A stretch of DNA of 64,000 bases, taken from NCBI GenBank assembly GCA_965217895.1, contig CBDCJV010000002.1, positions 5,142,100-5,206,099 on the forward strand. The letters are read 5' to 3'. Position numbers and translations under genes: made by a program. The stretch's first letter is position 1, and the number at the start of each line of letters is the position of its first letter. The notes beneath the pieces were generated by a model. The model ran no database searches. It saw only the letters and a list, made by a program, of their open reading frames with translations, and was not told where the DNA came from. Positions 5,168-29,690 of the stretch are shown piece after piece. This DNA is from Waterburya sp. (GTDB taxonomy: Bacteria > Cyanobacteriota > Cyanobacteriia > Cyanobacteriales > Xenococcaceae).

Positions 5168-5384
5168 CTTAAGTAGCAAGTAGCAGATAGCAGATAGCAA
5201 TGCTTTAAAGTAGTAATTAGCAGATAGCAGATAGCAATGCTTTAAAGTAGTAATTAGCAGATAGCAGATAGCAATGCTTTAAAGTAGCAAGTAGCAGATA
5301 GCAGATAGCAGATAGCAATGCTTTAAAGTAGTAATTAGCAATTAGCAGATAGCAATTAAGAAAGTTCAAAATTTGCTACTTAAG
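5168..5384 (+). repeat. Tandem array of ~37-bp units built from TAGCAGA/TAGCAAG heptamers, closed by a 12-bp inverted repeat
   Basis: Units at 5171, 5208, 5245 (37 bp), 5282 (44 bp) and 5326 (partial); CTTAAGTAGCAA (5168) / TTGCTACTTAAG (5373-5384). Confidence 0.92.
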
Positions 5385-5430
5385 TAAAGCTTGTCAATGA
5401 TAAAATTAAGTTACACAACTTAATTTTATC

Positions 5431-5650
5431 ATGAATAATCATAACATTTCGATACAAGATAGAACTAGAAATTTTGCGAATAGAGTAATAAAAGTCTATG
5501 TAGAATTAAACAAGAGAAAATACGATGATGCTGGTAAAGTTTTGTCTAAACAATTTCTTAGAAGTGGCACTAGCATTGGTGCAAACTGCTGTGAGGCTGA
5601 GTTCGCACAATCGAGAGCAGATTTTAGATCTAAACTAACTATTGCCTTAA
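5431..5650 (+). pseudogene. Four-helix-bundle protein (23S rRNA IVS / Avd-like family), 5' part, interrupted by integrated element
   Basis: RTRNFANRVI..LSKQFLRSGTSIGANCCEA..AQSRADFRSKLTIAL; family similarity stops at TTAAA 5647-5651. Confidence 0.9.
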
Positions 5651-14444: not shown

Positions 14445-14524
14445 AAACTTATCGTATAAAGTATATACAACGATATAATCTATGTCACAAAATATGTGTG
14501 GAATTTTTAGGTCATATAATTTAA

Positions 14525-14667
14525 AAGAAGCAAGTGAAACTCGCTACTGGATATTACTTTTAATTGATAATAATATTGTCTCAGAAACAAAATTGGCAAT
14601 GATGCTAGATGAATTAAATCAAATAATAAAAATTCTGATTGTAACAACGAAAAAGCTGAAAGAGTAA
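14525..14667 (+). pseudogene. Four-helix-bundle protein, 3' part
   Basis: (K)EASETRYWILLL..ELNQIIKIL..KKLKE* continues KLTIAL; the join gives 120 aa. Confidence 0.9.
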
Positions 14668-14717
14668 TTGCTACTTGTTATCTGCTATCTGCTACTTTAA
14701 AGCATTGCTACTTTAAA
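14665..14717 (-). repeat. Heptamer/37-mer array inverted relative to 5171-5360
   Basis: TAATTGCTACTTGTTATCTGCTATCTGCTACTTTAAAGCATTGCTACTTTAAA. Confidence 0.9.
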
Positions 14718-27537: not shown

Positions 27538-27707
27538 AGCTATAGTGAATATTAAGTATTATTACATTTTCTCCATTTTAGACTGATTTGTTAACTGAGT
27601 GAAACTTTTTTGCTAAATATCTTAGCAATGGTTCGGACAATTTTTGTAAAAGAGAGAAAAAAAGCCATCCACTGAATTAAGGTAAAAGTGTTGAAAGATT
27701 ACCTGCA

Positions 27708-29168
27708 ATGGATAGCGTCAAAACAATTATACAAAGCTTACTGATCTCGATGGGGGATTTAACACATCCTCAAAAGAAATTTATCTTGACCTTATTTTCA
27801 ACTCTGCTTGTAGGTTGCGGTAGAGCTAATTTTGTTAACTTAAGTCGTTATAGTCAAATCAGTGAGCGAACATATCGGCGACAATATCAACGTTCTTTTA
27901 ACTTCATCCAATTCAACCAAAAGCTAATAGAGCAAGCAATTGACTCTAAATCAGAGGTAATCCTAGCGGTAGACTGTTCTTTTATTCCCAAAAGTGGAAA
28001 ACGAACCTATGGTCTGGATCGCTTTTACAACGGCAGTGCATCAAGAGCAGAGAAAGGATTAGAGATTTCGGCAATGGCAGTAGTAGATGTAGGCAAAAAA
28101 AGGGGATACAGCCTCAGTGTTCAGCAAACACCAGCCAAGAACTCATCTTTAGAGAAAAATGAGCAACCAGAAACGACTAGGATTAATCACTATCTAGCTC
28201 AATTAGAAGTAACTGTTCCTTATTTACCCAGCTCCTTTGGAGCAAAAGTAACAAGTAGCAGATAACAGATAGCAATTAAGTAACTCCGAAGTTGGTCTAA
28301 AGCGCAGAGCCTGAAAGGCTCAGATCGTCGTCGAAGACGACTGGCAACGCGCAAGCGTTGCGCTCTTTAAAGACGAAAAAAAATAAAACACATTTCTTTG
28401 TTTCAATCCTCTTGTTTTAACGAGAGGTAAAATTGCTACTTGCTACTTGCTACTTGCTACTTGTGAACCAGCTCCCTTCGCTATGTAGTCAGTGATGGAT
28501 TCTACAGCAAAATTAAATGGGTCGAAGGAGTCACCAACCTCAAGCTAGAAGCAATCGGAAAATTACGACGGGATGCCAATTTACGTTATCCCAACCGAGA
28601 AGAATATTCAGGAAGAGGACGACCTCGTAAGTATGGCAAAAAAGTCGATTTAACCAACCAAAATAACTTTGAGTTGGTCACTCAATTATCTAACGGTATA
28701 GATCTTTACACCGCCGTTGTTTGGTCTATCAGTCTTAAACGCCAAGTTCGGATAGTCTATTTACTCAATAATTCAGCTTCTTCAAGCTATGCTGTTTTAT
28801 TTTGCACTCATCTTGAGCTTGATGCTTACTCGATTTATCTCTACTATAAATCTCGCTTCCAAATCGAGTTTGTGTTTCGTGATAGTAAACAGTTTACAGG
28901 GTTAGCTGATTGTCAGGCTCGCGATCTAAGCAAGCTTGATTTTCATTTTAATGCTTCACTCACTGCGCTCAATCTTGCCAAATTGGATACTGTTCAACAG
29001 CATAATTGTTCGACTAATTTTGTTTTTTCAATGGCAAGTTACAAACGCCGTGCGCTTAACTACCATCTGCTTGAACGATTTATTGACAAGTTAGATCTAG
29101 AGCCTACTTTAATTAAATCCCATCCCAATTACTCAAACCTTTATGACTACGGAGCTATTGCTGCCTAA
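27708..29168 (+). pseudogene. DDE transposase interrupted by a 240-bp insert; removal restores a 406-aa ORF
   Basis: AVDCSFIPKSGK..; join reads YLPSS|LRYVVSDGFYS; YKSRFQIEFVFRDSKQFTGL. Confidence 0.9.
28236..28475. mobile_element. 240-bp non-coding insert with heptamer-repeat inverted arms and an 8-bp duplication
   Basis: CCAGCTCC at 28228-28235 and 28468-28475; arms AAGTAACAAGTAGCAGATAACAGATAGCAATT / AATTGCTACT(TGCTACT)3; three-hairpin core. Confidence 0.85.
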
Positions 29169-29690
29169 TTTTGTCCGAACCATTGTAACTAATAACTAAC
29201 GTTTATCTAATCTTTTTTAAAGGCTAATAGCTAATAGCTAAAAACTAGCCACCACGAATGAAGGTAATTCACATTAAGCGTTACTTATTCCCATACTTGC
29301 GATCCAATTTGTCCATTTGAACGGCATAGACAAAAACTAGTACGTACTTTCTTCTATAATTTAAATTTTGAAATTAAGTTTATCTTGGTTTACTCTGGTA
29401 ACTTAGGCATTTGTAAATTTTGTAACTATTTTTACCAAACTTTGGCTCAAGAGATTTATAGGATTGTGCCATCAACTTGCGATCAACACCAGGGGAAAAA
29501 CTCAGGTATTTTGTTTAAATAGGAAATTGATAGTTCGTCGCTTACCGTTTTGTGGTTTTAAAGAACAAATTTTGTATAAACAATTGTCATATCAGGCTCT
29601 CTAATTCAGATTGAAGGTGCGAAATAAATGTTAAAACTCCTTTAGTTAATCAGATTATCAAATAAGAGCGATCGCAAGTAACTCATAAAT

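Follow-up and report, generated by a model that had tools for sequence, protein, structure and literature searches.

In the window, by which the whole analysed stretch of 64,000 nucleotides is meant here, the transposase gene of an insertion sequence (IS) is split by a short non-coding insert with two complementary heptamer arms, and the question raised by this locus is whether the insert is a mobile element in its own right and, if so, what kind of enzyme has moved it. A preceding sequence-only reading had described it as a discrete mobile unit at 28228..28475 with an 8-bp duplication as its insertion footprint, and had left the mobiliser blank.

The insert and its host insertion sequence

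The host IS is bounded by perfect 15-bp inverted repeats at 27626-27640 and 29171-29185, as first reported, and both halves of its gene match DDE transposase families, IS701_3 being the best NCBIfam match, which on the 3' fragment lies below the cut-off. Leaving out 240 nt restores, again as claimed, a transposase frame of 406 codons, which is stopped at codons 186, 192, 221, 241 and 253 when the insert is read through. There are three near-identical copies of the host IS in the genome (two on C2, one on C1), all three of them loaded with the insert, and the window's transposase has no intact copy in the genome. The sequence CCAGCTCC, noted as occurring twice at a distance of 240 bp, has exactly two occurrences in the window, at 28228 and 28468. 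The features of the locus are compiled in Table 1.

Table 1. Features of the interrupted insertion sequence and of the element that it carries, in window coordinates
Feature	Position	Strand	Basis
Host insertion sequence, IS701/IS4-like DDE type, 15-bp terminal inverted repeats	27626..29185	+	Inverted ends, gene halves, copy search
Interrupted transposase gene, 5' part	27708..28227	+	DDE_5 match
Target tetranucleotide TTAC, left cut motif, host sequence	28224..28227	+	17/17 genome sites; 44/48 core-anchored sites
Non-coding element, 240 nt, PATE-like; longest open frame 46 codons	28228..28467	+	Family comparison, empty alleles
Small 5' terminal hairpin	28231..28243	+	Fold prediction; stems of two types among family copies
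Outer AAAG at +18 to +21, possible replacement guide at the base of the arm stem	28245..28248	+	Position across copies; IS608 spacing of 19 nt
Left heptamer arm	28246..28277	+	Arm pairing, arm typing
Segment complementary to loop and 3' strand of the 5' hairpin	28282..28295	+	Varies together with 5' hairpin type
Inner left guide AAAG	28299..28302	+	Core comparison
Nested three-hairpin module, net +56 nt, breaking the inner left hairpin (approximate boundaries)	28304..28363	+	Missing from L052
Inner left hairpin, remaining 3' half, IPL-like	28364..28376	+	5/6 pairs changed on both sides in 9 module-less cores
Right guide CAAT, fitting the TGAA end by the IS608 pairing rule	28404..28407	+	Core comparison
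Inner right hairpin, IPR-like	28408..28427	+	Fold prediction, covariation count
Right heptamer arm, mirror of the left arm	28431..28462	+	Arm pairing, arm typing
Terminal TGAA, right cut motif	28464..28467	+	Common to family copies
Interrupted transposase gene, 3' part	28468..29168	+	DDE transposase family match; NCBIfam best IS701_3
Target-side CCAGCTCC, host coding sequence within Pro-Ser-Ser-Leu	28468..28475	+	Relatives vary (near-)synonymously here

The arms of the insert pair at 78% over 40 nt and at 79% over 28 nt, in agreement with the roughly 26 of 33 positions that had been counted by eye. The 248-nt stretch folds far better than expected from its composition, both as RNA (z = -7.0) and as DNA with its flanks (z = -6.6), none of 200 shuffles being as good in either case. 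Group I or II introns were considered and rejected: the insert has no Rfam match at the curated threshold, and its junctions do not fit the junction bases of such introns (exon U and terminal G; GUGYG..AY) on either strand.

Heptamers and related fragments are also found elsewhere. A short TAATAGC-type heptamer run lies at window positions 29221-29250, just past the right end of the host IS, and an isolated left end of 117 bp at C2:542206-542322 is related to that of the host IS, with 86% identity. Further upstream in the window, a gene for a PF05635 (four-helix-bundle) protein (about 5172-5650 plus 14505-14700) is split by an insertion of about 9 kb which opens with an integrase-like frame; this gene has the element's heptamer arms, the left arm standing before its 5' piece and the mirror arm after its 3' piece.

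A family with a fixed target and clean empty alleles

The insert belongs to a family with 28 related copies of 167-363 nt at 17 sites in this genome, all of which end in TGAA, and at 17/17 sites the copies are preceded by TTAC, the 3' flank being unconstrained. The left-end pattern used in the search did not require TTAC; it gave 28 matches, 27 of them with a right end, and 27/27 follow TTAC, while one further copy with a flipped hairpin loop was recovered from its right end. TTAC also precedes 44 of the 48 sites of a core-anchored set, which was built with anchor motifs taken from known copies and with TGAA demanded at the right end. Inspection of empty alleles, as the sequence-only reading had proposed, gave a gap of 0 in all five relative IS loci in which both flanks were matched (11 non-own loci fetched), and a filled/empty allele pair within the genome likewise shows a clean insertion. 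From the family ends and the clean empty alleles it follows that the element comprises 28228-28467 and has no fixed target duplication. The start first given therefore holds and the end has to be moved back from 28475: the left CCAGCTCC forms the first 8 nt of the element, and the right one is target sequence, where relatives show synonymous or near-synonymous variants.

A target-site duplication was accordingly rejected as a feature of the family. The start of the element and the 3' flank agree in 8/8 positions at only one of 41 sites, with a mean of about 2/8, and the longest flank-to-flank repeat measures 0-2 nt in 17 of 18 flank sets, the remaining set having a 7-nt repeat within a heptamer run. 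The nearest left-end relative of the window copy already matches the target at 7/8 positions, and the 8/8 match of the window copy, which had been taken for the footprint of insertion, reflects either chance or one-off templating.

Conventional terminal inverted repeats are lacking, as had been stated: the element begins with C and ends in TGAA. An ordinary MITE, named beforehand as the reading that would undercut the proposal, does not agree with a family in which neither terminal inverted repeats nor flanking direct repeats are found, and a classical MITE was rejected for want of both inverted repeats and a target-site duplication. Nezha-type MITEs are similarly small, gene-less, strongly folded and multi-copy, but they are described as having terminal inverted repeats that match an IS as well as flanking direct repeats (PMC3184786). 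With 28 copies at 17 sites and precise empty alleles, the insert is a discrete mobile unit and not a product of slippage. The presence of the same segment in other IS copies had been named in advance as speaking against mobility, and it is literally what was found (3/3); mobility stands nonetheless because the same family occupies 16 other sites.

Copies of the family are heterogeneous. Hairpin loops occur in both orientations among otherwise matching copies (e.g., C2:2503167), and a 58-nt copy without a core (L100) may be a deletion product. As to replichore bias, the chromosome shows no clear GC-skew switch.

The loading of IS genes by the family is nearly uniform. In three IS families every detectable copy of the site is loaded (3/3, 3/3 and 8/8), a fourth IS site is loaded in one copy and empty in another, and the inner modules vary among the eight copies at one IS site. 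That all copies of the window's IS carry the insert is likely to result from copying of a loaded IS by a transposase since lost, or from recombination between copies; transient removal or homing at the host IS genes are minor possibilities. The three copies of the window's IS (C2:5169725, C2:4961561 and C1:46535) have exchanged their five-base flanks, which points to recombination between them, C1 with C2 included, so that recombination can explain the uniform loading. A different explanation would have the element tolerated or even driven at these genes, either by its transient removal from single-stranded DNA or mRNA or by TnpB homing that converts empty alleles. Such an explanation would fit the three fully loaded IS families, the lack of an intact window transposase in the genome and the predicted fold, which brings both junctions together, but it is very improbable in view of the mixed fourth site, the flank exchange, the lack of a curated Rfam match and the different ends of the genome's single tnpB.

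At the level of the genus, a core covariance model detects the family in 17 of 39 genomes, with a sensitivity that is possibly lowered by the second helix of the model (R1) being set in shifted columns, and the exact left-end pattern is found in 5/39. The exact two-armed left-end pattern was absent from 400 other genomes of the class, one of them from the same genus. The same left end occurs in records titled Pleurocapsa, Waterburya and Calothrix, the Calothrix record being a MAG with one decayed copy; a plasmid collection gave only two short partial matches, and a pattern scan of metagenomes gave 103 stretches, with about 10 family members among the 80 listed and the rest looking like chance or unrelated matches. 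In a relative's copy of the window IS, an independent insertion of the family is found at a different TTAC (L079:2465-2798). No published description of the family was found in the main-text literature, and an earlier description is possible.

Core hairpins, guides and IS200/IS605 relatives

The core of the element consists of AAAG plus a hairpin, followed by (G/C)AAT plus a hairpin. In the inner left hairpin 96% of cells are paired and five of six pairs are changed on both sides, as counted in nine hand-picked cores without nested modules, which as kin are not independent. The mobiliser can be assigned to a kind, because the TTAC target, the TGAA end and the guide-plus-hairpin core are traits of the IS200/IS605 group.

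Of the three pairs that join a guide to its cut motif in IS608, one is formed between base 4 of each. The others join guide base 1 to motif base 2 and guide base 2 to motif base 1; the four-base guides, AAAG on the left, thereby read the cut motifs, and insertion takes place 3' of TTAC, with the donor restored without gain or loss (PMC3201880, PMC5027513). Cleavage takes place 19 nt upstream of the left hairpin and 10 nt downstream of the right one (PMC3201880). Similarly to IS608 (ISHp608), the element stands 3' of TTAC without target duplication, has an AAAG guide 5' of a hairpin with a spacing of 19-21 nt in its armless forms and a right guide followed by a hairpin, and has cut motifs with T in first and A in third position. 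In contrast to IS608 it is gene-less, it ends in TGAA instead of TCAA, its guides are often altered, and its linkers are long, with about 70-130 nt from TTAC to the inner guide and 16-100 nt from the right hairpin to the end in two-armed copies.

The guides of the window copy fit their motifs (AAAG/TTAC and CAAT/TGAA). Among 48 copies, a hand count of the inner left guide gave 24 intact, 7 followed directly by a nested module and 17 altered, and all 17 copies with an altered guide, which occur at many separate sites in two genomes, still stand at TTAC. On the right, 33 of 48 two-armed copies have GAAT as their guide even though they end in TGAA, so that one pair required by the IS608 rule is lost. 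In a set of 41 copies chosen for having TTAC and TGAA ends, 40 have an outer AAG that ends at +19 to +21, but the first base of this candidate guide is T in 18/40 and cannot pair with the invariant T of TTAC, so that neither candidate guide fully explains the TTAC target. Within the IS200/IS605 family the spacing between guide and motif is reported to be flexible, and a mismatched end was seen to run on to a downstream motif (PMC10055086).

Several relatives connect the two-armed copies with standard elements. Two copies from the genus (L213 and L230) lack the left arm and have standard left ends of 19-21 nt; L213 starts directly at the counterpart of segment 28282..28295, which in the window copy is likely to be a remnant of the ancestral left-end linker, as judged from the sequence comparison. 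In another relative (L052) the core is near-identical to that of the window copy without the nested three-hairpin module. The same kind of left end stands before tnpB in 4 of 29 tnpB loci (strict pattern; tnpB by Pfam), where the right ends are mostly GAAT..TCAA. Cyanobacterial tnpB elements of the IS1341 group (L235/L264, L268 and L284) share a near-identical left end consisting of TTAC, about 15 nt ending in a GGTCT-type motif, AAAG and a hairpin; they differ in carrying tnpB and in the right ends seen, which comprise GAAT, a hairpin and AG..TCAA with a short linker. Gene-less mini-elements with standard TTAC/AAAG and GAAT/TCAA ends are also present in this genome, one of them with a near-identical left hairpin. 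A gene-carrying element with a TGAA right end was not found among 121 genomes of the order with one strict pattern.

In one-armed relatives (L236-L263, from G241, G100 and G177), found in two other families, the same core is combined with a heptamer run of TGTCAAC or TAACTGA type between the right hairpin and the terminal TGAA, with 22-58 nt from the hairpin to the end of the array. The array ends in TGAA at 10 of 14 loci with the guide CAAT and at 0 of 3 with GAAT or AAAT, a count based on 20 loci from two genomes with array ends read from sequence rather than from empty alleles.

There is a second gene-less family in this genome (C2 near 553732, 1097656, 1420273, 1492975, 1779339, 2848275 and 4907929), with IS608-type right ends (GAAT..TCAA) and mostly TTAC/AAAG-type left ends. 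It holds heptamer hairpins, and once a four-helix-bundle gene, between the end hairpins and is an inside-out counterpart of the two-armed family.

With respect to classification, the family shows a fixed tetranucleotide target, no target duplication and a precise empty site, it has neither terminal inverted repeats nor a transposase gene, and its left palindrome, which in the window copy is broken by a module, is homologous to that of tnpB elements. All of this is as expected of PATEs. A palindrome near the terminus, however, is found only in the armless L213 and L230 and not in two-armed copies; because of this distance the family is filed as a PATE variant and not as a plain member. The PATEs of Haloquadratum walsbyi are likewise gene-less and heterogeneous, with near-terminal palindromes that are targeted by smaller repeats and no target duplication, and are mobile in a genome without intact tnpA; they differ in phylum and sequence, and mirrored repeat arms outside the palindromes are not among the features given in the parts of that report used here (PMC3119063).

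Mirrored arms and the source of the transposase

The arms are of four heptamer types, and both arms are of the same type in 35 of 36 copies that could be typed on both sides, the sole exception being a copy whose left arm has decayed. Two sequence types likewise exist for the 5' hairpin and for the stretch preceding the inner guide, and the two switch together. The predicted fold consists of a small 5' hairpin followed by a long stem, which mostly ends shortly before the 3' end (of 39 copies, 31 at 3 or 5 nt and one at 6 nt); for the window copy folded as DNA, most of the arm stem is missing from the centroid structure. In this model the arms are predicted to pair and to leave both cut motifs single-stranded at one junction.

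When the right and left ends are joined, reverse-complemented and compared with the left insert, the agreement is best with the last 5 nt dropped (14.3/16, against 9.3-10.8 for offsets 0-3 and 8-11) and is exact in two copies, a test that in part restates the complementarity of the arms. The left insert may therefore, going by this sequence match, be a fossil circle junction from which the right cut motif is missing and which now possibly serves as a splint.

The element is probably, at moderate confidence, a non-autonomous member of the IS200/IS605 group (IS608-type) that would move as single-stranded DNA by a Y1 TnpA acting in trans, with its arms pairing at one junction; what has been observed of this is the family with its ends and empty alleles, the core of guides and hairpins, the mirroring of the arms and the predicted fold. 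In the proposed history a short ancestor with standard ends would first have gained a heptamer run between right hairpin and TGAA, the state of the one-armed relatives. The right and left ends, joined and minus the last 5 nt, might then have been copied in inverted orientation into the left linker, giving rise to the left arm. TnpA would excise a single-stranded circle and insert it 3' of TTAC, and in copies with decayed inner guides the arm stem would determine where the cuts fall. What speaks against such a course is that a TnpA dimer bound to the inner hairpins of an arm-paired element would, in this model, sit a full stem length away from the cut sites.

Alternatively, the element may take the same TnpA route with passive arms, the inner guides and hairpins being used across long unpaired linkers, the mirroring being kept by template-switch hairpin repair, and the broken guides having arisen after insertion or by gene conversion. 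The linkers of the one-armed relatives suggest that long linkers need no partner arm, loops flipped between copies are a sign of template switching, the differing modules of the eight copies at one IS site point to conversion, and the inner hairpins keep compensatory change. We nevertheless consider passive arms unlikely: the inner guides are altered at many sites in two genomes (17/48), nested modules in one arm of a copy mostly have no mirror counterpart in the other, and a GAAT guide without a positional cue should, following what is described for mismatched ends (cf. PMC10055086), extend the element to a downstream TCAA, whereas the ends stop at TGAA.

As for the TnpA required by the preferred reading, no intact Y1 TnpA is present in this genome (G000), which is 99.9% complete, nor was any Y1 TnpA found in a second one (G020) with three core matches. 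The sole Y1 homologue of G000 is a frameshifted gene of the REP type (L001:1462-1993), followed by a different, GTAG-led palindrome, and the ends of its one tnpB differ from those of the element. In turn, a third genome (G019) has an intact IS608-type TnpA together with 18 core matches, and the left end of its TnpA element pairs TGAC with CAAG by the same pairing rule. Element-like sequence near tnpA was limited to two weak matches in 27 loci, and an IS91-type Y2 transposase was found in 0/5 genomes, with the control likewise blank. The left ends of two Y1 tnpA elements (L025 and L034) pair a TGAC target with a CAAG guide, and one copy of the family in G019 (L294) also follows TGAC.

Considering these absences, it has been weighed whether the ends, although derived from IS200/IS605, are now moved by a REP-associated tyrosine transposase or by an unrecognised host enzyme, which might also move the small nested hairpins. 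REPINs have a long end-to-end stem. The stem of the element recalls it, GTAG repeats occur in the arms, and many copies violate the guide rule at both ends, in line with another enzyme; however, REP or REPIN sequences moved by a RAYT were rejected because the only such gene is frameshifted and precedes a different palindrome, and the intact TnpA of G019 also argues for the IS608 route. Moreover, PATEs moved in a Haloquadratum strain in which every tnpA was disrupted (PMC3119063), so that a recent loss of tnpA has a precedent. A different enzyme is therefore rather improbable, and on the simplest reading the transposase would have acted in trans and been lost recently.

The heptamer repeats of cyanobacteria (STRR, TAACTGA) are of the same kind as the runs in the arms, and one of the one-armed relatives has a TAACTGA run; the runs of the element differ in sitting inside a unit with fixed mobile ends, and one study states that no transfer mechanism is evident for such repeats (PMC4679880). 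The family would be a concrete carrier for them, explaining only part of their spread, as these copies hold 9 of the chromosome's 39 arrays of the element's heptamer family. The small multi-hairpin modules within arms and core also resemble the small dispersed repeats of cyanobacteria, on which Elhai reportedly wrote in 2008.

Regarding what is new, the working of the element is likely to be of the IS608 type, and it is the stretching of both ends by heptamer arms that is unusual. Should the arms prove passive, the family would be one of ordinary PATEs whose history is unusual. A possible but still doubtful proposal, put forward tentatively, goes further and sees a self-splinting transposon, in which an inverted copy of the circle junction pairs both ends, takes the place of the guide-and-hairpin code and presents the TTAC and TGAA flaps at one point, whatever the length of the interchangeable arms and nested hairpins that it carries; together with the one-armed relatives it would be a vehicle that spreads heptamers. 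TnpA normally aims by short guides at set distances from hairpins, and precision in spite of decayed guides and of linkers 4-10 times longer would reveal a second way in which this enzyme can be aimed.
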